Source: Candidatus Latescibacterota bacterium (GTDB lineage Bacteria > Latescibacterota > UBA2968 > UBA8231). Taken from it: DNA of 64,000 nt. How positions within the stretch are numbered: the stretch's first letter is position 1; each line of letters opens with the position of its first letter. Positions 24,460-63,421 of this stretch are shown in pieces. The translations under genes were made by a program, and so were the position numbers. Below the pieces are notes generated by a model. The model saw only the letters and a program-made list of their open reading frames with translations. It had not been told where the DNA came from and ran no database searches. The DNA lies in assembly GCA_965197905.1 (NCBI GenBank), contig CBDAOB010000005.1, forward strand, positions 2,240,001 through 2,304,000, given 5' to 3'.

Positions 24460-24510
24460 ATTACCCGAACATCGACCAGGAACGAATCCAACCTCGGGAG
24501 AGAGGAATTA

Positions 24511-26436
24511 ATGGCTAAGGTAATCGGTATCGATTTGGGCACGACGAATTCGTGTGTGGCGGTAATCGAAGGCAAGGAGCCGGAGGTGATCGCCAATGCG
24601 GAGGGGGGTCGTACGACGCCCTCGATGGTGGCCTTTTCTACGGATGGGGAGCGTTTGGTGGGTCAGACGGCCAAACGCCAGGCGGTAACCAACCCGCAAA
24701 ACACAGTGTTTTCGATCAAACGTTTCATGGGTCGGCGTCACCAAGAGGTGGGCACGGAGATCACCGAGGTGCCGTATGCGGTGGTGAAAGGGGCTCGTGA
24801 TATGGCGGTGGTGGAGGCGGGGGCAAAGTCGTATAGCCCTCCGGAGCTGTCGGCGATGGTGCTGCAGAAGATGCGTCAGACGGCGGAGGATTATCTGGGC
24901 GAGGAGGTGCAGCAGGCGGTGATCACGGTGCCGGCGTATTTCAACGACGCGCAGCGGCAGGCGACCAAGGATGCCGGTGCGATTGCCGGGTTGGAGGTGT
25001 TGCGCATCGTCAACGAGCCGACGGCGGCGGCGTTGGCGTATGGGCTGGACAAACCGGGTAAGAGTGAGAAGATCGCGGTGTATGATCTGGGTGGGGGGAC
25101 CTTCGATGTGTCGATTCTGGAGTTGGGGGACGGAGTGTTCGAGGTCAAGTCGACCAACGGCGACACCCACTTGGGGGGCGACGATTTCGATCAGGCGCTG
25201 ATCGATTTTCTGGCGGACGAGTTTCAACAAGAGCAAGGCATCGACCTGCGCCAGGACCCGATGGCGTTGCAGCGTTTGAAGGAGGCGGCGGAGAAAGCCA
25301 AGTGCGAGCTTTCCTCGGCCAATCAGACCGAGATCAACCTGCCGTTTATCACCGCCGACCAGAGCGGTCCCAAGCATGTGCAGAAGAGCCTGAGTCGGGC
25401 GCAGTTCGAGCGTCTGGTGGACCCTTTGATCGCGCGCACCGAGGGTCCGTGCCAGCAGGCGCTCAAGGACGCGGGTTTGGCGGCGTCTGAGATCGACGAG
25501 GTGATTCTGGTGGGCGGTTCGACGCGTATTCCCAAGGTGCAGGAACGGGTGCAGGGACTGTTTGGGCGCGAGCCGCACAAGGGGGTGAATCCGGACGAGG
25601 TGGTGGCGTTGGGGGCGGCGATCCAGGCGGGGGTTTTGGCGGGGGACGTGGAGGACGTGCTGTTGCTGGATGTGACGCCGTTGTCGTTGGGGATCGAGAC
25701 CTTGGGTGGGGTGATGACCAAGCTGATCGAGCGCAACACCACGATTCCGACGAAGAAGAGCCAGATTTTCTCGACCGCGGCGGACAACCAGCCGTCGGTG
25801 GAGGTGCACGTTTTGCAGGGGGAGCGCGAGTTTGCCAACGACAACCGCACCCTGGGGCGTTTTCACCTGGACGGGATTCCGCCGGCGCCGCGGGGCATGC
25901 CGCAGGTGGAGGTGACCTTCGACATCGACGCCAACGGCATTCTGCACGTGGGGGCCAAGGACAAAGGCACCAACAAGGAGCAGAGCATCCGCATCGAAGC
26001 CTCCACCGGCCTGTCGGAGGAGGAGGTGTCGCGGATGCAGGAGGAAGCCGAGAGCCATGCCGAGGACGACCAGCAACGGCGGGCGCAGGTGGACAAACGC
26101 AACGAAGCTGATCAACTGGTCTACGCCACCGAGAAATCGCTGACCGAGCACGGGGACAAGCTCGAAGCGGCGGAGCGCACCGCGGTGGAGGAGGCCATTG
26201 CGGCGGTGAAGAAAGCGTTGGAAGAAAACGACGACGACGGCTTGACGGCGGTCGTGGAGCGTCTCACCGAGGCGTCGCACAAACTCGCCGAGATCCTCTA
26301 CCAGGAAGCCCAGGCGCAACAGCCCCCCCCGGGCGGCGATCAAGGGGCGCCCCCCAACCCCGACGACGCAGCTCCACCCCCGCAGGACGACGGGGCGGTC
26401 GATGCCGACTTCGAGGTCGTCGACGACAAGAAGTGA
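24511..26436 (+). CDS. dnaK: Molecular chaperone DnaK (Hsp70)
   Basis: [51 protein letters not shown] and C-terminal [11 protein letters not shown]. Confidence 0.98.
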
Positions 26437-26439
26437 ACG

Positions 26440-26470
26440 AAGAGGCCGGCCCACGGCGGGCCGACCTCTT
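26440..26470. terminator. Hairpin between convergent dnaK and Zn-dehydrogenase genes
   Basis: AAGAGGcCGGCCC-acggc-GGGCCGaCCTCTT inverted repeat. Confidence 0.6.
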
Positions 26471-38768: not shown

Positions 38769-40716
38769 CTATTCAGAACCATTCCCCTCTATGGTAATCT
38801 CTCCTTCGTAACCAGCCTCAACCAAGCGATCTGCTAATGCCTGCGCCGCACTTGTCGGTAGCGAAGCATTCCCCGTAATACTTAGGTCTTTTGCCACTCG
38901 CAGCAGATTAGTGAATCCCTCTAGATCACCCAATGAGACATTATTTCGGACAGTAAGATCCTCTCCAACTGTAATCAGATTCTCAAATCCATCCACATTC
39001 AACAAGGCCTCATTTGACCCGATAAAGAGATCCTTCCGAATCGAAGCAATATTGTTCAATCCGGTAATTGTGGTCAGTGCAGGGTTCTTATCAATCCGCA
39101 CATTACCAACACTCTCAACCATCTCCAATCCCGCCAGGCTACGCAACGCATCGTTTGATGCTACGTTGATCCGGCGCTCGATTATTGCAAGGCCTCCAAA
39201 GCCTTGCAAACTGTTCAGCGCAATATTGTGAGTAATATTGAGATCGCCTGTGATGCGACCCAGACTGTTGAATCCTAACAAGATGGTCAATTTGTCATTG
39301 GACAGTATCGATACGGAACGACCGACATTACTTAACCGGCTCAGATGTTCGGTACTGGTCAGGGATCTGTTCCCACTAATCCTTACGCTGGTACCGACGT
39401 GTGTCAGATTGCTCAGCCCGTTGAGACTCTCCAGTGAAGGATTTCTTTCTATCAGTAGGCTACCAAGGACTCTTGTAAGACCATCCAAGCCCGTCAGACT
39501 TTCCAACGCACTGTTGAGACCTATTGAACCTGGTGGTGGTCCAACAATCAAATCACCGCCGATACTGACCAGGCTGTTTAGGCCCTGCAGAGTCTTCAGC
39601 TTGCTGTTGTCATTGAGGGATAAAGCTCCTCCCACCTCGGTAAGGCTGTTGAGACCCTCAACTGTTGCCAAAGAAGGGAGACCCCACATAGTGAGGTCGC
39701 CTTGCACTAAGGTGAGGTTGCTCAAGGCACCAAGAGTGCTAACTGGAGACCTTACTATTGAAAGCTCTCCCCTCAATTCAGTCAGGTTGTTCAGTCCTTC
39801 GAGAGTCTCCAACGAGGTGCCGTAAATGCTCAGCCCACCCGCAGTGCTAAGATTATTCAGAGCCTCCACACTATTTAGCGGGTGATTGTTGAAAAGCGAG
39901 ATTTCTTTTCTGACTTCGAGAAGGTTGTTCATGCCATCCAGCGTCGTTAGGGAGAGATTCCCTTCGATAATTAGTTCCCCACCAACTCTTTGAAGGCTCT
40001 CCAACCCATCCAGGCTCGTCAGTTTTCGGTGACCCTCAATCCTAAGCGACCCGCCGACTTCCGACAGACTCTGCAGACCTCGCAGGCTAGTTAGACTGTC
40101 CTTCGACCATATTCCTCAGTAAAATTTCACGCGAGGTGTCTCATTCTACTTGACACGGTCCGCGCCTAAGATTATTCAGAGCCTCCACACTATTTAGCGG
40201 GTGATTGTTGAAAAGCGAGATTTCTTTTCTGACTTCGAGAAGGTTGTTCATGCCATCCAGCGTCGTTAGGGAGAGATTCCCTTCGATAATTAGTTCCCCA
40301 CCAACTCTTTGAAGGCTCTCCAACCCATCCAGGCTCGTCAGTTTTCGGTGACCCTCAATCCTAAGCGACCCGCCGACTTCCGACAGACTCTGCAGACCTC
40401 GCAGGCTAGTTAGACTGTCCGAAGGGAACAACCCGTTTCCTATCACTAGGTCTCCGCCGACTCGGGTCAATTTGCGGAGTCCCTCCAACGAAGTGACGCG
40501 GGAAGGTTGTATATCCAGTGTCCCCGTTATCTCGAAGGCACGTCCCCCCTCGGCGATCAAGCCATCAAAGTCGTCCTGAGAGCGGATCGTATAATCCCCT
40601 TCCAATGTCCTGATGTCACCAGACACTGGATCAAAAGGGTTGCTCTTCGGTGCATCATGACACGAGTAGATGGACACGCTGAGAAACACCAGAGCAACCT
40701 TAAAATAACGAATCAT
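38769..40716 (-). pseudogene. Receptor-L-domain/LRR repeat lipoprotein, split by a 255-bp duplication and 64-bp insert
   Basis: MIRYFKVALVFLSVSIYSC lipobox and repeats LxxLxGLxxLxxVGGxLxIxxN. Removing 319 bp gives a 1629-bp frame ending ADRLVEAGYEGEITIEGNGSE*. Confidence 0.85.
39847..40420. repeat. Direct repeat of 255 bp (39847-40101 and 40166-40420), identical by eye, with a 64-bp unique spacer
   Basis: Both copies run CTAAGATTATTCAGAGCCTCC...GGCTAGTTAGACTGTCC. Confidence 0.9.
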
Positions 40717-41567: not shown

Positions 41568-42440
41568 GGCATCTAGCACCAACTCGGTACGCAGATGTGT
41601 GGCCATGGCCCAACCGACAATGCGACGGCTCCAGGCGTCCATTACCACGGCCAGATACAAGAAACCGGCCCAGGTGGGTACGTAGGTGATATCGGAGACC
41701 CAGAGCTGATCGGGGCCATGGGCAGTGAAGTCGCGTGAGACCAGATCGGGTGCGATGGCGGCATCGCGTTCGCGGCGGGTGGTGTAGGTACCTTTGCGGC
41801 GGCTTACACCCGCCAGACCGGCCGCCCGCATCAATCGGGAGATGCGCTTGTGGTTCACGCACTTGTCGCGGGCCATGAGCTCGTCGCGCATCCGTGGTAC
41901 GCCGTAGGTACCGCGAGACCAGGTATGGATTTGTTTGATCATCTCGGTCATCTCCGCATCCGAGCGTGAGCGCGCCGATGCAGGTCGTTTCAGCCACGCA
42001 TAGAAGCCGCTGGTGGAGACTTCCAGCATACGGCACATGGTAGCGACGGAGTAGGAGGCCTGATGCGCTTTCACGAACTCGAAGAGCTGGACGGTACCGA
42101 GTCGGTCTCCCGAGCGAACCAGGCCGCGGCTTTTGCCAGAATTTCACGCTCGGTGCGCAGCTGCCGATTTTCCCGGCGCAGGCGACGGAGTTCGGCCTTT
42201 TCGTCCGTAGTGAGGCCATCATCTCTCGAGCCGTCATCCACACTCGCTTGGAACAACCAGTTGCGAATGGTCTGCGCAGAGGGCTCGAATTCCTTTGCGA
42301 GTTCATCCGGCGTCCGACCCGCTCTTACGAGCGCAACCATCTGCTCGCGGAAGTCAGGCGCATACGGTGTACGAGTTCGGGGCATGGGACATCCTCCTTT
42401 TCACAAGAAATGAGGTGTCCACTAAACGGGGTCAAGTCCA
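41568..42440 (-). mobile_element. IS3-family insertion sequence, right part deleted
   Basis: Left end TGGACTTGACCCCGTTTAGTGGACA at 42440. orfA 42071..42385 (YAPDFREQMV...ELRRLRRENRQLRTEREILAKAAAWF). orfB from 42074 (WVSDITYV..WAGFLYLAVVMDAWSRRIVGW) is cut after ELVLDA. Confidence 0.92.
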
Positions 42441-43611
42441 TGATATGAGAATCGTTCGGGATTCGGCCCAGTGCGTCCAAACCTGACAGGCTAAGCAACG
42501 CCTCATTGTTCACGATACCAATGAGACCACCGACATTGCTCAGCTGGCTCAAGTCCTCAATGCTGGTCAGTTTTGGATTTCCATTGATGGTTACGCTACC
42601 AGAAACGATCGCCAGGTTGTTCAGTCCGTTCAGGCTCTCGAGGGAAGGATTGCGTTGCACGATTAGGCTTCCGACGATCCTGGTTAGGCTTTCCAAACCC
42701 TCCAAACTCTCCAATGAAGAATTCCGTCCGGTTTGGTTGCCTGAAGGTCCGATTATCAGATCGCCTGCGACATTAACCAGATTGTTTAGGCTCTGAAGAG
42801 TCCTCAGATTTTGGTTGCCCCATACCTCTGCAGATCCGTCAACTTCAGTTAAATTCTCAAAGCCCAGAAATGACTGAATTGAGGGATTACTATGAATAAT
42901 TAGGTGGTCTCCTACGCTGGTGAGGTTGCTCAATGCGCCGAGAGCCTCCAGATCTGGATTTTGATGAATTGACAGACCCTTTTCTAAGTCATCGGAAATG
43001 TTGTTTAGGCCTTCAAGGCTTTTCAAACCGGTTACGCCAATTGTTAGTTGCCGCAATTTGGTGAGGTTGGTAAGAGCCGCCAGCGTCCCCAAGGCTGGAT
43101 TTACCTGGACATTCAAGCTCCCTACCTCTCGAAGGTTGTTCAAGCCCTCCAGGCTCTCCAAAGTAGGGTTACCCTGAATAAGGAGGGCCTCACCAACTCG
43201 TCTCAGACTTTGCAAACCGTCCAAACTCGTCAGATTTCGTTGACCCGCAATATGGAAGGAGCCTTCCACCTCGCTCAGGTTCTCCAGTCCCGTTAGACTG
43301 GTCAGATAGTCGACAGGTTGAACCCATGCTGTTCCTACCAAGACGTCTCCACCTATGCGAGTTAGATTTCTTAGGCCTTCTAATGTGGAAACGACGGGCT
43401 GAGCTAGGTCCAGTGTACCGGTTATCTCAAAAGCGCGACCACCTTCTGCAATTAGGGCATCAAGATCCTCCTGACAGCGGATCGTATAATTCCCCTCCAG
43501 TGTCTTGATTTCACCACTGACTGGATCGAAGGGATTTTGTCTGGGAGAATCATGACACGAGTACAGTGTCAAGCTGAGAAATACCAGAGCAACTCCTATA
43601 TAACGAATCAC
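42441..43611 (-). pseudogene. L-domain/LRR repeat lipoprotein interrupted by IS3
   Basis: MIRYIGVALVFLSLTLYSCHDSPRQNPFDP; repeats continue to LGRIPNDSHI, then read into the IS left end. Confidence 0.85.
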
Positions 43612-45176: not shown

Positions 45177-47507
45177 TTAACGTTCTTGGCCTGCCAGATC
45201 GGCGAAGAGGAAAAAATCGACATGGTGGATATGGCCGTCATCATCCAGGTCGAAACGGGGCTCGGCCGGCGGCACCCGGCGATTGAATTGATCGGCGAAT
45301 AGCAGGAAATCATTCATGTCGATGCTGCCGTCGGCATTGAAATCTCCTGCCTTAACAAGCTCCACATTGGCAGCCGTTATGTTGGCCGGCGCAAAAACGA
45401 CGCTACGATCGAGCCCGACTTCGTCGTCCCGATGCCAAATAACGCGGCTGACCGCCAGCTCGGTTTGACCTGAGAATCCGTCTAGGACCTGAAATGATAG
45501 TGTTCCCAGGATGCCGTTACCGGAGGCGGGAATCTCCTCTGCAAGGATGGTGCCCCCGATTTCTACACTGTTGCTGCTTACCTGTTCGGTAGGGTTCAAT
45601 CGGTCGAGAAACCGACCTGGAACGAAGCTTCCTTCAACATATGACAATTCGTCGGGGTTGAAATCGATACGCACGTTCCAACCCACCACCTCCGGAGCAC
45701 CCTTGGCGTGAAGCTGAAGCATGTGGATCGAACCCGGGACCGCGCCGCCAAGGAGTCTCTGTTGCTGGTTCCCAAGGTCCAGGTTGAAGTCGATAGCAAC
45801 CAGCCCTTCTTCCGGTTCACGTCCCTGGCACCGCAGCAGAATAGTCGATTGCCCTTCCTCATGTGCTAACGTCAGCACAACTTCGACCGGGTCGGTTGTC
45901 ACCGGCACGAAGAAAAGGCGTACCGTATGCTGTTCGCCGCCTGAAAAGTTGAGACTCGTCGGCTCGACGCCGAAAGGAGATTCAACAGGAAGTTCAGCAT
46001 CGATCTCAAGCGGCAGATTCCCGGGATTGGTCAAAACCAGCGTCCGCCACAGGGTGTCGCCGATCACGGCTGGGAAAAAGGAGATGTTATCGCTCTCTGC
46101 GACGAGTCGGCGCCATACACTCCGTCCCACGGCCGCTACCTGAACGGTACCTAACTTTGTGGCGCTGGTCAGCTGGGCGGTCTGCACGTCGGCGATATCG
46201 TCGGTGGCAGAAAACCGCGCGACGATGTCAATCTTCTCACCGGACTGCAGAATCATCGGCAATACAGGACTGTGCACGTTCAGATGGGGGGATGTACTGG
46301 AAAACGGGACCAGCTCCATTGTGACGGGGTGGTCGTTGGTCAAGGCGAACGACCGATCCACCGTCTCCCCCGCGGGGACATCGCCAAATTCCAAAAGACT
46401 CGGCTCGGTCATCAACACCGGCAGCGGAGCTTCGGCCACCTGTATATCCAGGCGCAACCGACTGGTCCCTCCCTGGCCGTCCTCGTAGGTCACAGCGAGC
46501 GGATAGATTCCTGCTTGGTCGTAAAAGGGGAACCACTTGAGCATCGTGCCTTCTAGTGCAGCCCCAGGGGGCAGTGCCGTTACTGTCATCTGGATGGCGT
46601 CGCCTTCTGGGTCGGTGGCCGCCACATCCAGCACCAAAAACTCTCCTTCCTTTATGTGCTGATTTTCGATCGACGGGATTATGGGGCCGTCGTTAAGCGC
46701 ACGAACGGCAAATCGCAACCAGGTGCGGGCAAACTCTAGACCACTGCCATCAACAACGCTGAAGCTAAGACTGTCGCGCTGGGTTTCTGAGCCATCGTGC
46801 ACATAACTCACCAGTGAATTGTCGATGTCCGCTTGAGTGAACGCGCTTCGGTTAAGACGGCCGTGAGACGGACCGGAGTTAACCGTAAACGCCAACTGGT
46901 TGGTTGGGGTGTCGGGATCCAGAACGCGCAGATACCCATTGCTGACAACAACAGTCGCACCTTCGTCAACCGGTACCGTTTGGAGTACGTCGATGGCGCC
47001 GATCGATGCCGGGACCTGCGCCCCGTTCTCCTGGGGGAAACTCGAAGCATCGCCTGGCTTAGAGACCAGCAACGCCGTCGCCGGGGCCGCCTGGCCCGGT
47101 CGCCAAGCGCCATTCGGATCCTGTAGCTCCCGACCGTTGGTAAACCCGTCTCCATCGGAGTCCAGGGCCGCCAGTTCCGGCCCCCAAAACTCCTGACTCC
47201 CTCCCGGAGTGACGCGAGCCTCCACAGCCAGTCCGAACGGGTTGCGGGGCGAGCCCCCTCCACTGGTATGGCAGGTATTGCACCCGGCAGGGGCGTACGG
47301 AATCATACTGGTACGGAACGATCGCGCTTCGACTTGTTCTGCTTGAGTGAGTATGAATGATCCAGCGAGGAGGAGGCAGAAGAAACGCTGCCCACCACCC
47401 ACCCCGACTATCACAGGTCGACGCAGCAACCGACGTTTCGCAAGCCGGAGCAAACAGCAGGACCTGGTTCTATGCGACAAGTGATCCGGTCGGCTATGCA
47501 TAGGCAT
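45177..47507 (-). CDS. Secreted multidomain protein: CxxCH temptin-like N-domain, cadherin/Ig-like repeats, cohesin-like domain and dockerin/EF-hand tail
   Basis: GCNTCHTSGGGSPRNPFG...LDSDGDGFTNGRELQDP; FTQADI...YVHDGSET; ATDPEGD; LEFGDV; GDFNADGSIDMNDFLLF...DLDDDGHI. True start is uncertain and probably downstream of 47507. Confidence 0.78.
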   Translation of the reverse strand: MPMHSRPDHLSHRTRSCCLLRLAKRRLLRRPVIVGVGGGQRFFCLLLAGSFILTQAEQVEARSFRTSMIPYAPAGCNTCHTSGGGSPRNPFGLAVEARVTPGGSQEFWGPELAALDSDGDGFTNGRELQDPNGAWRPGQAAPATALLVSKPGDASSFPQENGAQVPASIGAIDVLQTVPVDEGATVVVSNGYLRVLDPDTPTNQLAFTVNSGPSHGRLNRSAFTQADIDNSLVSYVHDGSETQRDSLSFSVVDGSGLEFARTWLRFAVRALNDGPIIPSIENQHIKEGEFLVLDVAATDPEGDAIQMTVTALPPGAALEGTMLKWFPFYDQAGIYPLAVTYEDGQGGTSRLRLDIQVAEAPLPVLMTEPSLLEFGDVPAGETVDRSFALTNDHPVTMELVPFSSTSPHLNVHSPVLPMILQSGEKIDIVARFSATDDIADVQTAQLTSATKLGTVQVAAVGRSVWRRLVAESDNISFFPAVIGDTLWRTLVLTNPGNLPLEIDAELPVESPFGVEPTSLNFSGGEQHTVRLFFVPVTTDPVEVVLTLAHEEGQSTILLRCQGREPEEGLVAIDFNLDLGNQQQRLLGGAVPGSIHMLQLHAKGAPEVVGWNVRIDFNPDELSYVEGSFVPGRFLDRLNPTEQVSSNSVEIGGTILAEEIPASGNGILGTLSFQVLDGFSGQTELAVSRVIWHRDDEVGLDRSVVFAPANITAANVELVKAGDFNADGSIDMNDFLLFADQFNRRVPPAEPRFDLDDDGHIHHVDFFLFADLAGQER

Positions 47508-53722: not shown

Positions 53723-54580
53723 TCAGGCGCTCTTCTTTTTTCGTTTGGGTGCGGCTTTCTTCTTCTTCGCGGCGGCCGGTTTCTTCTTGGCCCGCTCCAT
53801 CGGCTTGCGCGAGCCTTTCGCCTGCGAGATGCTCTCGCGCAGAGCGGTCATGATGTCGACCACGGGCTTTACTTCCTCAAGGACTGTAAGCACCTCTTTG
53901 CCCTCGACCTTGGCAGTAACCATATCCTTGACGGCCTGTTTATAGCGATCGGCAAGATCGAGATCGGCGATCGACGCAGACATGGAGTCGACCAGAGTAT
54001 TGGCCAACTCAACCTGTTCCGGTTCGGCCTCGGCTCCTCCCGTCTTGGGCACGTCTGCAATATTCCGCAACGTCGCCGGGTTGCGGAGTTTGTACATGAC
54101 CAGACCGTCATCCACGGTGCCCAGGATCACGATCTCCTCCCGATCGCGCAGGACCACCCGGCCGATCCCCAGTTTGTCCGCACTTGCCAACGTCTCCCGC
54201 AGCAGACCGTAGGTCTTGCCCGCCACATCCCCGTCTGGCCCCACGTAATAAGGAGTATCATACCACATGGGATGGATCTCCGACGCCTCCACGAACCCTT
54301 CCAGCTCGATCACCTTCGTGCTCTTAATCTTGATCTTGTCGAAATCGTCGTTTTCGAACACCACGTACTGATCGGGCTCGTACTCGTACCCCTTTACGAT
54401 ATCATCGTTGGGAACCGGATTTTCACATTTCTTGCATTTCTTGTCGTACCCTACCCGGCCGTTGCAATCGCGGTGCAGCTGATTGAACTGCACTGATTCT
54501 GCCGAATCTACCGCACTGAAGATGCGTATGGGGATAGTCACGAGAGAGAACTGAATATGACCTTTCCAAATAGATCGCAT
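53723..54580 (-). CDS. ku: Non-homologous end-joining protein Ku
   Basis: MRSIWKGHIQFSLVTIPI, FNQLH, IVKGYEY, VVDIMTALRESI and a basic tail. Confidence 0.95.
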   Translation of the reverse strand: MRSIWKGHIQFSLVTIPIRIFSAVDSAESVQFNQLHRDCNGRVGYDKKCKKCENPVPNDDIVKGYEYEPDQYVVFENDDFDKIKIKSTKVIELEGFVEASEIHPMWYDTPYYVGPDGDVAGKTYGLLRETLASADKLGIGRVVLRDREEIVILGTVDDGLVMYKLRNPATLRNIADVPKTGGAEAEPEQVELANTLVDSMSASIADLDLADRYKQAVKDMVTAKVEGKEVLTVLEEVKPVVDIMTALRESISQAKGSRKPMERAKKKPAAAKKKKAAPKRKKKSA

Positions 54581-54608
54581 GGTTAACTCCGCAGCGTGAT
54601 AGGTTTGG

Positions 54609-56912
54609 TCATTCTTGCAAGTCGGACAGATCGGGACGCAGTCGCTTCAACCGGGCGTTCCGCAGCAACCCCTTGGAGGTGCGAGCGCTGTATTCCACTT
54701 CGCAGATCAGTTTCGGTTCCAACCAGGTTGTGACCCGCTCGTCTGCCACTGTTGCTCTTATCGGCTTTTTCACCGCAATCAGCCCCTTAAATAGATCGGC
54801 CGCCTGGACCAATGTTGCATCCGAGAAACCGGATCCCACCTTGCCGATGTAGCGCAGAGCTCGACCACTCTTTTCCGCCAGATGCAGGGCCCCGATTCCC
54901 CCAGCCCGATCTCCCTTCCCGGCGGTAAACCCGACCACCAGGCAGTCGACCGATTGGCTGACCTTGATCTTGAGCCAATCACTGCTGCGGATACCGGGCC
55001 TGTAGGTGCTGTCGCGGCCCTTGGCCATGATGCCTTCAAGCCCCAAGCTGCCGGCTGCAGCGAAAAGCTCGTCGCCCTGTTCCTCGGCGAGGCTGAGCCG
55101 GAATCGGGAGTCGACGGGCACCGCGTCCGCCAGCAATTCCCGCCGCCGTTCCAGGGGCTCTCCGGTAAGGCAAACGCCGTCAAGATACAAACAATCGAAC
55201 AAATAGCAAAAGGCTTTATTTATATTGACCTTGCGACCACTATGCAACCTGCTGAGCACGGTTTCGAACTGCGGTCTGCCCGCGTCGTCCAGACAGACGA
55301 TTTCACCGTCGAATACCGCGGTCGACGCCTTAAACGCCTCGGCCTCATCGACCAGCTCCTGGAAGTGTTCTGTCATATTCTTTTGGTTGCGGCTGCGAAT
55401 GGTGAGTTCGCCGTCGTCCAGGCTGACCAAAGCCCTGAGGCCATCCCACTTTACCTCGAAAAGATAGTTCGCATCCGACGGTGGATGTGCGACACTTTCC
55501 GCCATCATCGGCTCCAGCGGATCGCGGGTCCAATCGATCTGCGGCTCGTCGATCCGCTCCAGAAGCCAATCCTTGCCCCGGGTGTTGATGAGCCGGAACT
55601 CGGCATCCAAACCCTTGCTGGCAACCCGGATGTAGATCGAGTCCTTCTTGTCTTTGGTTACCTCGTATTTGCCTCGGGCGAGAATCCACATCGGCCCGGC
55701 GCCATACTCCCCTTTTGGAATCCGCCCTTCGAAATCGGCGTATTCGAGCGGATGATCCTCCACCTTGACGGCCAGGCGTTTGATCCCCGGACGCGGCGGC
55801 ATCCCTCTGGGTACCGCGAAGGACCAGAGCACGCCATCCCGTTCAAGGCGCAAGTCGCAGTGCACATTGCGCGCATGGTGCCGATGAACGACAAAATCGT
55901 TTTTCCAGGTTTTGGAGGCTTTTCCCGCCGGTTCGGGGGTTTTCGCGAACCGCCGTTTTCCCTCGTACTCGATAAGCTGTTTGGCGGTTTTCGATTTGCC
56001 GGCGGACCGCACCTTTTTCTTTCCCGCAACCTGGGTCGGACGTTCGGTGTGCAAGCCCGTGGCATACGCCTCTAGGCCTTCCCAGGCATCCCCATCCCGC
56101 CGCAGCAAGTCGGGAACCTTTTGAATGTTCAATACCAACTGATCCTCGATCTCGTCGAGCCCACTCCACGGCAGCGGATACGAAACGGCTGCGCTCTCAT
56201 TGGCTCGAAGGCTGTACGGCGCCACGATCGTCTGTCCCGGTCGATTTCGGTAGATGTCCACCAGAACCTTCTCCACCCTCGCCGCTTTGGTGATTCTCAG
56301 GGTCGTTGTGGAGCCGTTCTCGGCGACAAACCTCCTGGCGAGATCTTGGGCGGCGGCGAAGACCCGGTCGCTGCCGAAGCTCCTCTCGAGGGGAGCGACG
56401 AGGTGCAGCCCCTTGCTGCCGGTAGATTTCGCGAACAGGTGATAGCCGTGATTCTCCACCAGAATCTTGAGTGCCAAAGCGAGCTCGACCACCGCCGCGA
56501 AGGGCGTGCCGACGGGGGGGTCGAGGTCGAAAACCATATAGTCCGACAGTTCGAGGTCTGGCCGACGAACCGGAAGCTGATGGATCTCCAAACACGCCTG
56601 GCTGGCCAGCCAGACCAACGTGGCGGCATCGTTGCAGATCACCTGATCCGTCTTGGAGACCAAACAGTGTTCTACCCATTTGGGTGCGGTAGCCGGTATG
56701 TTCTTTTGGAAAAAGCTTTTCTCCTGGACTCCTTCGGGGAAACGGACGAGGGTCAGCGGTCGATTCCTGATATGTCGCAGGATTGTCGGTGCAATATTGA
56801 GGTAGTATTCTATGACCTCGGCTTTGAGAATCTGCAACTCGGGGAAGAGAACCTTGTCCAGATTCGTCAGTTCCAGCTGTTGCTTGCCGACTTGCGTGAG
56901 TTTGGATTTCAA
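54609..56912 (-). CDS. ligD: DNA ligase D (polymerase-phosphoesterase-ligase order)
   Basis: LTNLDKVLFP, FDLDP, STGSKGLH (Pol); FVVHRHHAR..HCDLRLE...EDHPLEY (PE); EVKWDG, DGE, EGIMAK, WLKIK (ligase). Confidence 0.95.
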   Translation of the reverse strand: MKSKLTQVGKQQLELTNLDKVLFPELQILKAEVIEYYLNIAPTILRHIRNRPLTLVRFPEGVQEKSFFQKNIPATAPKWVEHCLVSKTDQVICNDAATLVWLASQACLEIHQLPVRRPDLELSDYMVFDLDPPVGTPFAAVVELALALKILVENHGYHLFAKSTGSKGLHLVAPLERSFGSDRVFAAAQDLARRFVAENGSTTTLRITKAARVEKVLVDIYRNRPGQTIVAPYSLRANESAAVSYPLPWSGLDEIEDQLVLNIQKVPDLLRRDGDAWEGLEAYATGLHTERPTQVAGKKKVRSAGKSKTAKQLIEYEGKRRFAKTPEPAGKASKTWKNDFVVHRHHARNVHCDLRLERDGVLWSFAVPRGMPPRPGIKRLAVKVEDHPLEYADFEGRIPKGEYGAGPMWILARGKYEVTKDKKDSIYIRVASKGLDAEFRLINTRGKDWLLERIDEPQIDWTRDPLEPMMAESVAHPPSDANYLFEVKWDGLRALVSLDDGELTIRSRNQKNMTEHFQELVDEAEAFKASTAVFDGEIVCLDDAGRPQFETVLSRLHSGRKVNINKAFCYLFDCLYLDGVCLTGEPLERRRELLADAVPVDSRFRLSLAEEQGDELFAAAGSLGLEGIMAKGRDSTYRPGIRSSDWLKIKVSQSVDCLVVGFTAGKGDRAGGIGALHLAEKSGRALRYIGKVGSGFSDATLVQAADLFKGLIAVKKPIRATVADERVTTWLEPKLICEVEYSARTSKGLLRNARLKRLRPDLSDLQE

Positions 56913-57774: not shown

Positions 57775-58533
57775 ATGCTGAAAGATCCGTTTAGTCTGGC
57801 AGGCCAGATTGCACTCATCACCGGCGGCGGGACCGGCCTTGGATTGGGAATGGCCAAGGCGTTCGCAGCGCAGGGCGCCAAGGTGATCCTTGCCGGCAGG
57901 CGAGAAGAGGTCTTGCAGAAAGCGGTAAAAGAGATCGGCGAAGCCGCCGATTACCGGGTTCACGATGTGGTCGACTTTGCCAAATCCGGCACTCTAATCG
58001 AATCGGTGGAAGAGCAGCACGGCTCCCTTACCACGCTGATCAACAATGCCGGCATCGGCATTCGCAAAGCGACTGAAGAGGTAGAGGAAGAGGAGTTCAT
58101 GGAGGTTTTGAACGTCCATGTTATGGGGGCCTTCTCTCTGTCGAAGTGGGCCGCGAGAAGTATGCTTAAATCGGGCGGCGGCAGCATCTTGTTCACCGCT
58201 TCCATGACCTCCTATTTCAGCGTACCGGCTGTGACCTCTTACGCCGCGGCCAAGTCGGCCTACCTGGGCATGGTGCGCAACATGGCCGATGAATGGGCGG
58301 ACAGAGGAATCCGGGTAAATGCCATCGCGCCGGGCTGGATCGAAACCGATCTGAGCCGGCCGACCATCAAAGATCCGGTGAAGAGCGCCAAGATATTGGG
58401 AAGAACTCCCATGGCGCGCTTCGGGGAAGCGGAGGATATTGGCTGGGCGGCGGTCTACCTTGCGTCACCCGCGGCGAAGTTCGTGACGGGTGTCTGTCTA
58501 CCTGTGGACGGCGGAGTTTTGATCGGTCTGTAA
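57775..58533 (+). CDS. SDR oxidoreductase (gluconate 5-dehydrogenase-like)
   Basis: ITGGGTGLG, NNAG, YAAAK, RVNAIAPGWI, LPVDGG. Confidence 0.88.
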   Translation: MLKDPFSLAGQIALITGGGTGLGLGMAKAFAAQGAKVILAGRREEVLQKAVKEIGEAADYRVHDVVDFAKSGTLIESVEEQHGSLTTLINNAGIGIRKATEEVEEEEFMEVLNVHVMGAFSLSKWAARSMLKSGGGSILFTASMTSYFSVPAVTSYAAAKSAYLGMVRNMADEWADRGIRVNAIAPGWIETDLSRPTIKDPVKSAKILGRTPMARFGEAEDIGWAAVYLASPAAKFVTGVCLPVDGGVLIGL

Positions 58534-58562: not shown

Positions 58563-60392
58563 ATGCTGGAAATCCTTGCCATCGTCGTCGGCGTAACCAT
58601 CCTGCTGTTCCTGATAACCCTGGCACGTGCGCCCGACAGCGACGACGCGCTCTGCTACGACACAAGCGACGGAACCCGTGATCCTCACAAGTGGGGCTAC
58701 ACCGACACTCGCTTCGAGTTCGACGGCCCGCGTGCCGTCCGGGTGACGGGAGACCGCTATCCCATGGCCGGCTACAGCATGCCATATTTCGTCGACTTTG
58801 CCGAGGAGGTTCTAGGAATACCGATCCGGGCCGAGGATGCAGTCGCCGAAGCAGTGCCCGAAGCTGCGCCAGCTCCGGTCTTGAATGAGCCTTTTCTGGA
58901 GGGGTTGCGCGAGGCGCTCGATGCAGACCAGATCTCCCAGGAGGCCTCTGACCGGCTGGTGCACAGCCATGGCCAGCTCAGCGTCGACGAGGTGTATCGT
59001 CTATTGCACGGCAAGTCGCTGGAGCGCATCGTCGATATCGTCCTCTATCCCCGGAAGGAAGAAGAGGTGACCTCGATAATCCAGCTGGCAAACCTGCACG
59101 GCGCCTGCCTAGTGCCGTTTGGCGGCGGCACCAATGTCAGCGGTGCCGTGGCCTGCACCTCAACCGAACAGCGCTGTATAGCATCCGTCGATATGCGCCG
59201 TATGAAACGTATCCTGTGGCTTGACGAGGAGAATCTGCAGGCCTGTGTTGAAGCGGGGATTTCGGGCAAGGAGCTGGAACGGGAGCTGGACGTAAGGGGG
59301 TATACTTCCGGCCACGATCCCGACAGCATCGAGCTATCGACGCTGGGCGGGTGGATCTCCACCAACGCCAGTGGCATGAAGAAGAACAAGTATGGAAACA
59401 TAGAGGATATCGTTCTCGAGGCGACGCTGATCACTCCTACGGGCGAGGTCGAGGCACGGCGCGCAACCCCGCGCAATTCCGTAGGGGTGCCGCCGCGGGT
59501 CTTCCTCTTCGGCAGCGAGGGCAACTTGGGCATCATCACCAAAGCGATCATCAAAGTCCATCCGCGACCTGAGGTGCGGCGTTACGGATCGCTAGTTTTC
59601 CCGTCGCTTCAGCACGGGGTTCGTTTCCTCAAGGAGATGCGTCGGGTGGGGGCAGTGCCGGCCAGTATTCGCCTGGTGAGCAACGTGGAATTTCGTTTCG
59701 GCCAGGCATTGAAACCGGCGCCCGGTTTCCTCAAAGGCATCGCCGCTTCGGTGCAGAAGCTGTTCCTGTTCAGGATCCTGCGCTACAAACCTCTGGAGAT
59801 AACCGCGAGCACGATCGTCATGGAGGGCACCGAGCGCGAGGTGGAGCATCAGTCGGAGACCTTGTTCTCCACTGCCAAGAGATTCAAAGGGGTCAGCGGG
59901 GGCGCCGGCAACGGGCGTCGGGGGTATATGCTGACCTTCGGCATCGCCTACATACGAGACTTCCTCAGCCAGTTCCAGATTCTCGGTGAAACCTTCGAGA
60001 CCTCGGTCCCCTGGGACCGGATCGAGACCGTTTGCGAGGCGGTGCAAAGCGAGCTGATTTCCCAGTGTCGATCCTACGACGTGCCGGGAAAACCGTATCT
60101 CGCATACCGGTTAACCCAAACCTATCATACCGGAGTGTGCATCTACTTTACCATGGGGTTTTGCGGTAAGGGACTGGAGAATCCGGAAGAGGTCTACCAC
60201 AACATCGAGCGTGCCCTGCGGCAGGTGATTCTGGACAACGGCGGCTCTCTCTCCCACCACCACGGCATCGGCAAGATTCGCCGCAACTTCCTGCCGCAGA
60301 TTCAAACGGAAAACAGCACCCGCGTGCTGCGCGACATCAAGAGCTCGATGGATCCCAACAATGTCTTCGCCGTTGGCAACGGCCCCTTCTAG
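58563..60392 (+). CDS. Alkyl-dihydroxyacetonephosphate synthase (AGPS)-like FAD enzyme with an N-terminal membrane anchor
   Basis: WGYTDTRF, PFGGGTNV, GHDPDSIELSTLGGWISTNASGMKKNKYGNIED, GSEGNLGIIT, PASIRL, GYMLTFGIAYIRD, ETFETSVPWD, TQTYHTGVCIYF, SHHHGIGK. Confidence 0.88.
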   Translation: MLEILAIVVGVTILLFLITLARAPDSDDALCYDTSDGTRDPHKWGYTDTRFEFDGPRAVRVTGDRYPMAGYSMPYFVDFAEEVLGIPIRAEDAVAEAVPEAAPAPVLNEPFLEGLREALDADQISQEASDRLVHSHGQLSVDEVYRLLHGKSLERIVDIVLYPRKEEEVTSIIQLANLHGACLVPFGGGTNVSGAVACTSTEQRCIASVDMRRMKRILWLDEENLQACVEAGISGKELERELDVRGYTSGHDPDSIELSTLGGWISTNASGMKKNKYGNIEDIVLEATLITPTGEVEARRATPRNSVGVPPRVFLFGSEGNLGIITKAIIKVHPRPEVRRYGSLVFPSLQHGVRFLKEMRRVGAVPASIRLVSNVEFRFGQALKPAPGFLKGIAASVQKLFLFRILRYKPLEITASTIVMEGTEREVEHQSETLFSTAKRFKGVSGGAGNGRRGYMLTFGIAYIRDFLSQFQILGETFETSVPWDRIETVCEAVQSELISQCRSYDVPGKPYLAYRLTQTYHTGVCIYFTMGFCGKGLENPEEVYHNIERALRQVILDNGGSLSHHHGIGKIRRNFLPQIQTENSTRVLRDIKSSMDPNNVFAVGNGPF

Positions 60393-60400
60393 CCCCGGCC

Positions 60401-61207
60401 ATGTTCCGCGACAAGGTAGTGATCGTGACGGGGGCTTCCTCTGGACTGGGCGCAACGTTGGCGACCGAGTTCGCTGCCACCGGCGCCAAGGTTGCGCTGT
60501 TTTCACCGGAGGAAGAGAAGCAAGCGGAGGTGGCGCGGCAATGTGAAACGGCGGGTGGCAAAGCGTTGTCGGTGGTGGGCGACGTAACCCTGGAGCGTGA
60601 CTGCAAGATCCTGGTCGAGGAGACGCTGAGCTCCTTCGGTGGGATCGATTACCTCATTGCCAACGCCGGCATCAGCATGTGGGCGCCCTTCGCCGATGTG
60701 GACGATCTTCAGGTCTTTCGAAAGCTGGTCGAGGTGAACTATCTGGGCGCCGTGAACTGCATTCACTACGCCCTGCCCCATCTGATTGCCAGCAAGGGCA
60801 TGGTGGTCGCTATTACCTCGATCCAGGGTAAGATCGGGGTTCCTCTTCACACCGGATACGTCGGCTCCAAACACGCCCTTCAAGGCTTCTGCGAGTCGTT
60901 GCGTATGGAGCTTGCCGGCACCGGCATGGGCGTCCTCACGGTGCTGCCACACTGGTTGCGCGGTACCGATCTGAGAAAGAACGCCTTTGGCAAGGACGGC
61001 CGCGCCCTCGGCACCTCCTCCCGGCGCCACAGCAGCGAGTCGATATCCCTTGAAGTGGCGGCTCGCGCAATCATGAAGGCGACCCACAAACGCAAACGCA
61101 CTCTGGTTATTCCCTGGAAGCTGCGGTTGCTGCTGGCCCTCAACCTGTTCAATCCGGGGTTGGCCGAGTCGCTGATCACCGGTGCGGTGAAACACCAGGA
61201 TGACTAG
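60401..61207 (+). CDS. SDR oxidoreductase, DHRS7/DHRS7B-like
   Basis: VTGASSGLG, NAGIS, VNYLG, AITSIQGKIGVP.HTGYVGSKHALQGFCESLR; starts 8 bp after the AGPS stop. Confidence 0.85.
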   Translation: MFRDKVVIVTGASSGLGATLATEFAATGAKVALFSPEEEKQAEVARQCETAGGKALSVVGDVTLERDCKILVEETLSSFGGIDYLIANAGISMWAPFADVDDLQVFRKLVEVNYLGAVNCIHYALPHLIASKGMVVAITSIQGKIGVPLHTGYVGSKHALQGFCESLRMELAGTGMGVLTVLPHWLRGTDLRKNAFGKDGRALGTSSRRHSSESISLEVAARAIMKATHKRKRTLVIPWKLRLLLALNLFNPGLAESLITGAVKHQDD

Positions 61208-61391: not shown

Positions 61392-62273
61392 ATGTTTAGG
61401 CTGACTTCAGTTTTTCTTCTTGTGCTACTGATCTCCGGTTCGGCCGTGGGCCAGGATCCGGATACCTTGCTGACTGTTGCGATTCCGAATGGGGAGTTCA
61501 TGCAGTTCGCCTGGATCGAGCCGGGTAACTTCCTCATGGGAACGGAGGATGAGGACCTACCGAACGGATCGGATGAGGTTCCGGCCCACGAGGTCACGAT
61601 CAGCACCGGTTTCTACATGAGCATCTTCGAAATAACTCAAATACAGTGGGGCGCCGTTATGGATACCAAGCCCTGGCGGTTCGAGCGCTACACCATTGAG
61701 CACATTCACAGCCCGGCGAGCCATATTTCCTGGGATGATATGCAGGAGTTTATTGCGGTTTTGAACGAGTTCGAGGGCGGGTCGGTGTATCGCCTTCCCA
61801 CCGAAGCGGAGTGGGAATATGCAGCCCGTGGTTTCACCAGCTCACTCTGGTTTTTTGGCGATTCCCCCAACGCGTTGCAGCTCTACGCCTGGTATTGGAG
61901 GAACGCCTGGGACCGAGGGGAGTCGTTCGCGCATTTGGTGGGCTCTAAACTGCCCAATCAATTCGGTCTCTACGACATGCATGGCAACGTGTGGGAGTGG
62001 GTCCAGGATTGGTACGGACCGTATTCTGCAACGGCCAAGACTGATCCCGAAGGTCCGACCGAAGGAACCCGAAAGGTGCTGCGCGGCGGCGGGTTTGTGA
62101 GCCCTTTCTACGAGGCCCGCTCCGGCGTGAGAAGCAGCGAAGCCCCCGACAGTCGCTTTTCGGACATCGGCGCACGCATCGTTCGCCGCAACCTGCCAAC
62201 CTCTGTACGCCAGGAGAGCTGGGGTCGGGTCAAAGCTCGCCTCCGACCCGGCGAGAATCCCTCAAGTCCGTGA
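61392..62273 (+). CDS. Secreted formylglycine-generating-enzyme (FGE-sulfatase) domain protein
   Basis: Signal peptide; FLMG, PAHEVTI, RLPTEAEWEYAAR, FGLYDMHGNVWEW, RGGG; C-terminal PTSVRQESWGRVK. Confidence 0.9.
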   Translation: MFRLTSVFLLVLLISGSAVGQDPDTLLTVAIPNGEFMQFAWIEPGNFLMGTEDEDLPNGSDEVPAHEVTISTGFYMSIFEITQIQWGAVMDTKPWRFERYTIEHIHSPASHISWDDMQEFIAVLNEFEGGSVYRLPTEAEWEYAARGFTSSLWFFGDSPNALQLYAWYWRNAWDRGESFAHLVGSKLPNQFGLYDMHGNVWEWVQDWYGPYSATAKTDPEGPTEGTRKVLRGGGFVSPFYEARSGVRSSEAPDSRFSDIGARIVRRNLPTSVRQESWGRVKARLRPGENPSSP

Positions 62274-62515: not shown

Positions 62516-62566
62516 AACATCTTGGTGGTCCTCAAACGCCCGAGAACCATCAGGAGTCAGGTGTTC

Positions 62567-63421
62567 ATGCGTGAAACGATCGACGGAAGCAGGGATTCGG
62601 TGCTGGCTTCGTATTTCGCCTACATCGCGGAGTCTCATCCGCTGTCGAGGGATCGAGAGCGAGAGTTGGCAGAGCGCATCCAGCAAGGAGACATGGATGC
62701 GCGGGATGAGTTGGTGCGAGCCAATCTTCGTTTCGTCGTCAGTATCGCGATGAACTACCTGAACCGGGGTATGAGCCTGGCCGACCTCATTAGCGCTGGA
62801 AATATGGGTTTGCTCACTGCTGCCGAGCGTTTCGATGCGGGGCGCGGATTCAAGTTCATTTCCTATGCGGTCTGGTGGATTCGCCAGTCGATCATCCAGA
62901 GCATGGTGGATCAATCGCGGGCCGTGCGACTCCCCGCAAACAGGATTGCCCTGCTGCGAAACATCACCAAGACCTCGCAGCGTCTCGGCAAGAATCTCGA
63001 AGTAGAGCCAGCGCTGGAGGATATCGCGGACGAACTGGAGCTACCGGTCCAGGAGTTGCTGAATACGGTGTTGAGTGCCCGAGTAGTTTGCTCTCTCGAC
63101 GATAGCGACGAGGAATCACACACGACCCTTTTGGATAACCTGCCTGACCGGTCGCAACGAGCTCCGGATGAAGATGTGGTGAGGTCGTCGGATAGTGTGG
63201 AACTCGGACGTATCCTCTGCACCTACCTCGATTACCGAGAACGGCGGATCGTTCAACTCTATTTTGGCTTCGACGGCAGCAACGCGATGACCCTGGAGCA
63301 GATCGGTACGATACTTGGTCTTACCCGCGAAAGGGTGCGGCAGATCAAAGAAGACGCCCTGGCGAAATTGCGCCGTACCCGGCAGACCTCCGGTCTCCAA
63401 CCATTAGTTGAAACCTGTTGA
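62567..63421 (+). CDS. sigma70-family RNA polymerase sigma factor (RpoD/SigA-like, lacking region 1.1)
   Basis: ANLRFVVSIA, GFKFISYAVWWIRQSI, RAVRLP, MTLEQIG..LGLTRERVRQIK; RBS AGGAG. Confidence 0.93.
   Translation: MRETIDGSRDSVLASYFAYIAESHPLSRDRERELAERIQQGDMDARDELVRANLRFVVSIAMNYLNRGMSLADLISAGNMGLLTAAERFDAGRGFKFISYAVWWIRQSIIQSMVDQSRAVRLPANRIALLRNITKTSQRLGKNLEVEPALEDIADELELPVQELLNTVLSARVVCSLDDSDEESHTTLLDNLPDRSQRAPDEDVVRSSDSVELGRILCTYLDYRERRIVQLYFGFDGSNAMTLEQIGTILGLTRERVRQIKEDALAKLRRTRQTSGLQPLVETC

Follow-up and report, generated by a model that had tools for sequence, protein, structure and literature searches.

We analysed a 64,000-nucleotide stretch of a Candidatus Latescibacterota genome (the window, G000:C5:2240001-2304000; genome G000, 6.69 Mb in 5 contigs, 91% complete), in which a homologue of alkyl-dihydroxyacetonephosphate synthase (AGPS) is encoded just ahead of a classical short-chain dehydrogenase/reductase (SDR). 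On sequence evidence, this AGPS-SDR pair is a real, conserved module of the bacterial dihydroxyacetone phosphate (DHAP) ether-lipid route. We consider it probable that the two enzymes carry out steps 3 and 4 of that route, supplied by a fatty acyl-CoA reductase (FAR) and an orphan acyltransferase encoded elsewhere in the genome, with ether lipids as the predicted product. A first-pass annotation had read the pair as two consecutive ether-lipid steps in one bacterial operon; the AGPS identity by sequence, the conservation of the pair and the presence of FAR and acyltransferase in the genome and in relatives' operons support that proposal, whereas the DHRS7B orthology that it gave the SDR does not stand. 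Of most interest are the AGPS-linked SDR subfamily, as a candidate bacterial alkyl-DHAP reductase, and the non-detection of PlsY and GpsA across the class. Features of the pair are as follows.

58563..60392, + strand: AGPS homologue (alkyl-DHAP synthase), 609 aa, with FAD_binding_4 and FAD-oxidase_C domains (Pfam, phmmer)
58563..58631, + strand: hydrophobic N-terminal segment of the AGPS homologue (Kyte-Doolittle 19-residue mean 2.77)
59670..59672, + strand: Arg370, opposite guinea-pig Arg419, which is His in mutant structure 4bc7 (alignment)
59955..59957, + strand: Arg465, opposite guinea-pig Arg515 (alignment)
60144..60146, + strand: Tyr528, opposite guinea-pig Tyr578, which is Phe in mutant structure 4bca (alignment)
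60255..60263, + strand: His565-567 loop, opposite guinea-pig His615-617 (alignment)
60401..61207, + strand: classical SDR, 268 aa, above the NF004825/PRK06181 cut-off; AGPS-linked bacterial subfamily (W94, Q142, H150, W185, T189, R192); proposed acyl/alkyl-DHAP reductase
60818..60871, + strand: SDR catalytic stretch Ser140 - Gln142 - Tyr153 - Lys157 (Q142, Y153 and K157 invariant in 30 aligned SDRs)

The AGPS homologue and its paired SDR

The two reading frames (58563-60392 and 60401-61207) lie 8 bp apart, the spacing given in the first-pass annotation. The longest mechanical open reading frame (ORF) for AGPS begins at 58293 (699 aa) and overlaps the upstream gene; at the 58563 start, close homologues (L001, L004) align from residue 1, and a purine-rich GGGAGAGA lies just 5' of it.

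A phmmer search against the PDB returned guinea-pig AGPS (4bby) at 511 bits (E 2.8e-152, residues 43-603) and Dictyostelium AGPS (2uuu) at 301 bits, with the next protein, D-lactate dehydrogenase, at 87 bits, which agrees with the earlier statement that the protein is far closer to AGPS than to a generic GlcD/D-lactate dehydrogenase. It scored far under the cut-off of the GlcD model, and was the single copy in G000 at E<=1e-20. All of the metazoan AGPS-like motifs listed in the first-pass annotation occur in the 609-aa translation, and the catalytic Arg, Tyr and HHH that it named are kept, with HHH at 60255-60263 as claimed; the alignment adds R370, R465 and Y528. Every one of the 121 aligned rows retains all six residues (R/R/Y/HHH), among them ten distant homologues at about 30% identity; the rows comprise the window protein and 120 locus proteins from 159 loci examined, with some genes fetched twice. 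The spacing resembles that of Dictyostelium R352, R447 and Y508, named as important in PMC3509576, which describes the reaction as an acyl-for-alkyl exchange that proceeds via a flavin adduct and is redox-neutral overall. We conclude from its sequence and its catalytic residues that the first protein is AGPS.

The label "eukaryote-type", by contrast, was overstated for AGPS: scored against the guinea-pig enzyme, a Myxococcota AGPS reached 544 bits, the window protein 511 and a Fidelibacterota protein 487, and a specially animal-like AGPS was rejected, by score only. AGPS has been described as carrying too little phylogenetic signal (10.1101/2025.10.10.681575).

A hydrophobic N-terminal segment (>=1.8) was present in 95 of the 99 close AGPS homologues with a long enough N-terminus, and is a probable membrane anchor. 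This segment, which differs from the mammalian enzyme, could be taken to favour a homologue whose nucleophile is not a long-chain fatty alcohol and whose product does not enter the membrane; we regard such a function as highly improbable given the full-length similarity, the retention of all examined catalytic residues and the linkage to FAR described below.

The second protein matched NF004825/PRK06181 over the whole model (282.8 bits; cut-off 215), a family to which the library description assigns no substrate. It has the classical SDR features (TGxxxGxG, N113, S140, Y153xxxK157) and carries AITSIQGKIGVPLHTGYVGSKHALQGFCESLR. In an alignment of 30 AGPS-adjacent SDRs (the window protein and 29 of 43 complete ones), W94, Q142, Y153, K157, W185, T189 and R192 were invariant; the AGPS-linked members of the family form a distinct clade with its own signature residues.

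The SIQGK-type motif that the first-pass annotation shared out between this SDR and DHRS7B was borne out by an arthropod "SDR family protein 7-like" sequence (P0340): the motif S-S-I-Q-G-K...P...Y-x-x-S-K-H-A is common to the SDR and four arthropod proteins, three of which bear that name. We take this name to denote the insect DHRS7B orthologue; vertebrate DHRS7B was not among the sequences retrieved. Identity to the four arthropod proteins was 32-37%, no closer than to vertebrate DHRS7 or a Bacteroidota SDR, and on the bacterial SDR profile they scored 163-172 bits, under the 150th match (211.9). Searched against 1.84 billion representatives, this profile retrieved a signature-bearing block, generic bacterial PRK06181-like proteins and some protist proteins, with no named animal protein among the 20 looked up of its 150 best matches; in a length-filtered search, vertebrate DHRS7 was the commonest named animal match of the SDR. 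The PDB search with the profile returned no DHRS7 structure, 11-beta-HSD1 being among the best matches, and an ESM Atlas search returned bacterial SDR clusters only.

Both FastTree (167 rows) and IQ-TREE (43 rows, LG+G4) placed the AGPS-linked SDRs in their own clade with 100/100 support and grouped DHRS7 and the arthropod proteins apart, in trees whose sampling favoured bacterial-profile matches and whose outgroup was weak. The approximately unbiased (AU) test rejected a joint clade of the bacterial SDRs and the arthropod proteins (p-AU 0.000275). The trees, the AU test and the 32-37% identity therefore overturn the assignment of this SDR as a DHRS7B/PexRAP orthologue. Judged by these trees and alignments, the AGPS-linked SDRs are a separate bacterial subfamily within the same broad group as DHRS7/DHRS7B; the shared Gln is real, yet the protein should not be filed as DHRS7B, and it lacks the N-terminal hydrophobic extension found in the animal proteins.

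Several SDRs near the bacterial subfamily (P0278, P0267, P0253, P0209, P0271) end in SKL, SRL or AKL, two of them from named organisms (Cavenderia fasciculata, Eimeria flavescens). We take these endings to be peroxisomal targeting signals, and the proteins may be protist acyl/alkyl-DHAP reductases. Furthermore, DHRS7 and DHRS7B are both reported to have acyl/alkyl-DHAP reductase activity (PMC13200781), so the broader kinship of the bacterial SDR still fits the activity proposed here.

Linkage of the pair and its partner genes

The pair singled out in the first-pass annotation is kept. Among 79 AGPS-seeded loci, the SDR lay within 150 bp in 43 and within 2 kb in 2 more; for the 41 loci with AGPS at >=60% identity, it lay within 150 bp in 36 and within 2 kb in 2, two loci ended too soon, and one was without the SDR. 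From the opposite direction, 80 SDR-seeded loci had an AGPS-like gene within 5 kb in 44 of 50 cases with Gln142 versus 0 of 30 without it (26 of these 30 have at least 1.5 kb of upstream DNA); at least 4 of the 80 also contributed to the seed alignment, related loci do not count as independent, and the distant type accounts for 11 of the 44 AGPS neighbours. The six Gln142 loci without an AGPS-like neighbour include two with almost no upstream DNA.

The linkage of Gln142 SDR and AGPS spans loci labelled Latescibacterota, Fidelibacterota, Verrucomicrobiota, Acidobacteriota, Planctomycetota, Calditrichota and Ignavibacteriota. From one phylum to another, it is the alcohol supplier (FAR or an HMG-CoA-reductase (HMGR)-fold protein) and the acyltransferase that change, while AGPS and SDR remain together. 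The nearest loci, L004 (91% identical) and L001 (83%), are labelled Candidatus Latescibacterota and uncultured Gemmatimonadaceae, respectively; by label, the 45 pair-bearing loci comprise 20 Latescibacterota, 8 Gemmatimonadota and 8 without a phylum, among other labels. Although the labels conflict, we treat the organism as Latescibacterota. In class genomes G017, G087, G091 and G025, both genes are present and unlinked. No AGPS-SDR fusion was found among 6 matches from 5166 longer candidates, which is weak evidence.

Other arrangements were also observed. At L043 (521-9322, Latescibacterota) and L190 (6225-8833), FAR, orphan acyltransferase and an AGPS of the 45%-identity type are followed by a different SDR, and the reductase slot looks replaced; in genomes G013 and G028, too, a different SDR comes after an AGPS at 45% identity. 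The alternative SDR beside AGPS (L043, L072) had mycolate reductase as its best match, under the cut-off, and its assignment to the Ayr1/PRK05693 type was unsupported. Acidobacteriota loci L040, L041, L048 and related ones have AGPS without this SDR, with other conserved flanking genes and an acyltransferase-like gene directly downstream.

As the first-pass annotation had observed, the window shows neither a DHAP acyltransferase nor a FAR: no acyltransferase or FAR family was found among the 41 window ORFs scanned with Pfam, a subset of its ORFs, and all genome-wide matches to PF01553, PF03015 and the orphan acyltransferase fell outside it. Candidates for both functions, which that annotation had looked to the rest of the genome for, were located elsewhere in G000.

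G000:C5, about 2.028-2.031 Mb: stand-alone FAR, 554 aa, PF07993 and PF03015
G000:C4:1604975-1606909: orphan acyltransferase, 645 aa, 44-47% identical to the gene between FAR and AGPS in relatives

In relatives (e.g. L003, L011, L019, L039, L052), FAR, acyltransferase, AGPS and SDR stand in one cluster. The orphan acyltransferase had no NCBIfam match at E<=1e-30, and the PF01553 search missed it; it holds HQSVLD (HX4D, H443-D448), and its structure model, built from 10 sequences (pLDDT 75.2, pTM 0.76), had PlsC, GPAT and PatA among its best fold matches. The GPAT C-terminal domain PF19277 was found neither in this protein nor anywhere in G000 (E. coli control positive). In G000, FAR is directly followed on the same strand by lgt, the prolipoprotein diacylglyceryl transferase gene (L080 661-3105). 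Within the window's family (f1), many genomes carry the FAR domain inside a longer open frame, about 1400-1500 aa and ElbD-like in size; that of G000 stands alone at 554 aa.

These operons bear on the possibility that AGPS makes alkyl-DHAP while the SDR acts elsewhere, either in fatty acyl-CoA/aldehyde reduction for the alcohol or on an unrelated ketone, with another enzyme reducing the DHAP ketone. The rejected DHRS7B orthology leaves room for such a role, as do the inclusion of Acr1-type acyl-CoA reductases in the SDR family (PMC11948995), the different SDR at L043 and L072, and the FAR fusion and epimerase-family gene found instead at myxobacterial-type loci (PMC9131029). However, an alcohol supplier, either FAR or an HMGR-fold protein, is already encoded in the same operons. 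With GpsA not found in the class, some enzyme has to carry out the C2 reduction, and this SDR is the linked reductase. The Gln, His and Arg that are invariant close to the active site would also be well matched to a polar substrate bearing a phosphate. We therefore consider a separate job for the SDR unlikely, and retain alkyl-DHAP reduction as its proposed role.

Proposed route and glycerolipid entry across the class

In the proposed route, the stand-alone FAR would yield a fatty alcohol (step 1), the orphan 645-aa acyltransferase would acylate DHAP, the presumed acceptor (step 2), and the presumably membrane-anchored AGPS would exchange acyl for alcohol via a flavin-bound intermediate to give 1-O-alkyl-DHAP (step 3). 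The SDR would then reduce the C2 ketone to 1-O-alkyl-glycerol-3-phosphate, and probably also acyl-DHAP to lyso-phosphatidic acid (step 4), after which a PlsC-like enzyme and CdsA would carry on the ordinary pathway; CdsA was found in G000. CarF/PEDS1 (PF10520) had no match in G000, and the controls gave no match either; alkyl (plasmanyl) lipids are accordingly our cautious expectation for the product.

The animal peroxisomal pathway (FAR1, GNPAT, AGPS EC 2.5.1.26, DHRS7B/PexRAP and DHRS7 EC 1.1.1.101) would share these four steps, as well as the AGPS catalytic residues; its SDR falls within the same broad group and likewise has S-x-Q ahead of YxxxK. It differs in that the bacterial SDR is no DHRS7B orthologue and has no N-terminal extension, the bacterial side lacks a GNPAT-like domain, and the bacterial AGPS has a probable membrane anchor. 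The Myxococcus xanthus operon MXAN_1676-1675-1674 encodes AGPS, a FAR-GNPAT fusion and an NAD-dependent epimerase/dehydratase (PMC9131029; 10.1101/2025.10.10.681575). The bacterial AGPS resembles the animal enzyme to much the same degree in both cases (about 42% there; 511 bits here, 544 for a Myxococcota locus), and FAR and acyltransferase occur in the same genome in both cases. In contrast, the gene after AGPS here encodes a classical PRK06181-type SDR, where the Myxococcus-type operon continues with a fused FAR-acyltransferase gene and one of the epimerase family. Here FAR is a stand-alone gene, the acyltransferase comes from a separate orphan family without PF19277, both are encoded elsewhere in the genome, and PlsY and GpsA were not found in the window's class. 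FcrA is an HMG-CoA-reductase-like fatty acyl-CoA reductase, and FcrA genomes with AGPS have been noted (PMC11948995); HMGR-fold genes similarly stand first in the AGPS-SDR operons of Fidelibacterota, Verrucomicrobiota and other groups, whereas the window's class uses a PF07993/PF03015-type FAR.

The first-pass annotation had also considered the lineage notable for AGPS, a point already published: homologues were reported in 67 of 92 Latescibacterota metagenome-assembled genomes (PMC11868695) and again in 10.64898/2026.06.23.733905, the main text of which does not contain "DHRS". Our literature search, whose coverage was mainly outside subscription journals and supplements, found no publication on the AGPS-SDR pairing or on PlsY/GpsA loss, and the literature found names no bacterial alkyl-DHAP-reducing enzyme.

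We then considered how widely these genes are distributed, using 101 genomes of the phylum at >=85% completeness, 77 from the window's class (G000 included) and 24 from other classes; controls for PlsY and GpsA were positive, and a negative here means not found in the genomes searched, which are related and incomplete. AGPS was found in 73/77 class genomes versus 1/24 from other classes, the SDR in 70/77 versus 1/24, the orphan acyltransferase in 77/77 versus 2/24, and the FAR domain in 77/77 versus 3/24. Conversely, PlsY was found in 0/77 class genomes versus 21/24 from other classes, and GpsA in the same proportions (0/77 versus 21/24). Neither PlsX nor the PlsB C-terminal domain was found in G000.

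On these counts we tentatively advance a broader reading, to which we give somewhat less than even weight: the class would have dropped the glycerol-3-phosphate (G3P) entry (GpsA, PlsX/PlsY), its membrane lipids would start from DHAP via the orphan acyltransferase, with AGPS converting part or most of the acyl-DHAP into ether lipid, and the SDR subfamily would be the EC 1.1.1.101 enzyme that replaces GpsA.

The same distribution speaks to whether the pair might instead salvage or degrade ether lipids from a host or the environment; the SDR would then oxidise alkyl-glycerophosphate, and AGPS would exchange the chain. Ether lipids are abundant in sponge holobionts, agps matches occur in Latescibacterota from sponges (10.64898/2026.06.23.733905), and the pair in G000 lies apart from FAR and the acyltransferase. 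Salvage is nevertheless very unlikely in our view: biosynthetic partners share the relatives' operon and occur in 77/77 class genomes, and near-universal single-copy retention better fits a core function.

More serious is the possibility that the enzymes do what is proposed here while contributing only a minor side route, with bulk phospholipids made from G3P (through glycerol kinase or an unrecognised dehydrogenase) that is acylated by the orphan acyltransferase or by a 445-aa acyltransferase. This bears on how much the route contributes and does not conflict with the enzymology set out above. The glycerol kinase GlpK occurs in G000 and in 25 of 41 class genomes, disruption of MXAN_1676 cut ether lipids only slightly (PMC9131029), three of five pair-bearing genomes from other phyla keep GpsA and two of them PlsY, and four genomes have the acyltransferase with no AGPS or paired SDR found. 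Set against this, neither GlpK (found in 5 of the other 19 genomes in the window's family) nor the 445-aa acyltransferase (6 of 41 class genomes) is class-wide, and this patchiness led us to reject either as a class-wide G3P route. A minor role is quite conceivable, if less than probable. GpsA loss as a general trait of pair-bearing genomes was likewise rejected by its retention in three of those five, and two Acidobacteriota chromosomes with the pair (L131 in G114, L153 in G115) yielded neither PlsY nor GpsA.

Several further observations weigh against the DHAP route with the SDR as its reductase. The assignment of acyl/alkyl-DHAP as the SDR substrate comes from genomic context, since DHRS7B orthology was rejected, and SDR substrates are hard to predict from sequence. 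At position 36, the window SDR has Pro where the arthropod proteins and 27 of 45 paired bacterial SDRs have Arg, and the cofactor may be either NADPH or NADH; an Arg after the second strand is, we assume, an NADPH determinant. In the 38 more distant AGPS loci, the SDR was present in 7 and absent from 31, and 7 of the 77 class genomes had no match to it. The fold match of the orphan acyltransferase is weak, with just PlsC at E<=0.001 (E 3.1e-4), and cannot tell DHAP from G3P; G000 also encodes two other PF01553 acyltransferases and, as noted, GlpK. Finally, the acyltransferase and the FAR domain occur in G024, G099, G026 and G043 (the last 99% complete and from another class), whereas searches of these four genomes found neither PlsY nor GpsA, nor AGPS, this SDR or the alternative SDR; another route must therefore exist.

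The AGPS-less clusters in two of these genomes (L188 6060-17609 in G043; L189 1698-11964 in G026) read FAR, orphan acyltransferase, a HAD-like gene, a zinc-dehydrogenase-like gene (397 aa) and a 515-aa gene; L189 adds an acyl-CoA-synthetase-like gene and L188 a DAG-kinase-like gene, with labels other than FAR and acyltransferase assigned by eye. The zinc-dehydrogenase-like gene could be an alternative reductase. G056, from another class, has both routes, PlsY and GpsA plus a FAR - acyltransferase - AGPS cluster (L191, G056:C112) in which the SDR match spans just residues 120-266; this cluster may reflect transfer or mis-binning.

Surrounding genes and significance

A further SDR gene lies immediately ahead of the pair.

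57775..58533, + strand: upstream SDR, best NCBIfam matches PRK07231, PRK06124 and KduD; 29 bp before AGPS

It is probably co-transcribed with AGPS here; as a member of the conserved module it was rejected, since L001 and L004, the two closest loci, were the only others with this gene ahead of AGPS. A scan for promoters and terminators gave 2 promoter-like and 8 terminator-like sites versus 1.4 and 4.2 in shuffles, and was uninformative. Contamination by eukaryotic DNA is unlikely: the pair sits on a 2.68-Mb contig among bacterial neighbours, its GC content is 0.60-0.61 versus 0.58, and it recurs across the class.

Downstream of the pair, 61392-62273 and 62522-63421 (both +) encode an FGE-sulfatase-domain protein and a sigma-70 factor, with no link to the module seen. 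Elsewhere in the window, 53723-56912 (-) holds Ku and LigD, an ordinary non-homologous end-joining pair; 38769-40004 and 42325-43611 (-) encode two proteins with Receptor L domain matches (PF01030); and 45177-47507 encodes a cadherin/Ig-like protein. A 648-aa frame at 24508-26454 (-), antisense to dnaK (24511-26436, +), scores as PF10712 NAD-GH. We presume this frame to be the known antisense artefact rather than a gene.

The AGPS-linked SDR subfamily offers a small soluble candidate for the bacterial alkyl-DHAP reductase, and an AGPS neighbour can be predicted from its signature. Were the DHAP route the main entry to phospholipids in this class, it would be an exception to the bacterial start from glycerol-3-phosphate via PlsB or PlsX/PlsY; the chirality of the glycerol backbone would then be set by the reductase instead of GpsA. 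The producers of alkyl ether lipids in sponges and marine water columns have been called unresolved (PMC11868695; 10.64898/2026.06.23.733905). The DHAP route is a candidate source of these lipids and, if the proposal is true, short-chain alkyl glycerol ethers found in sponges and in the sea would have one source in this class.

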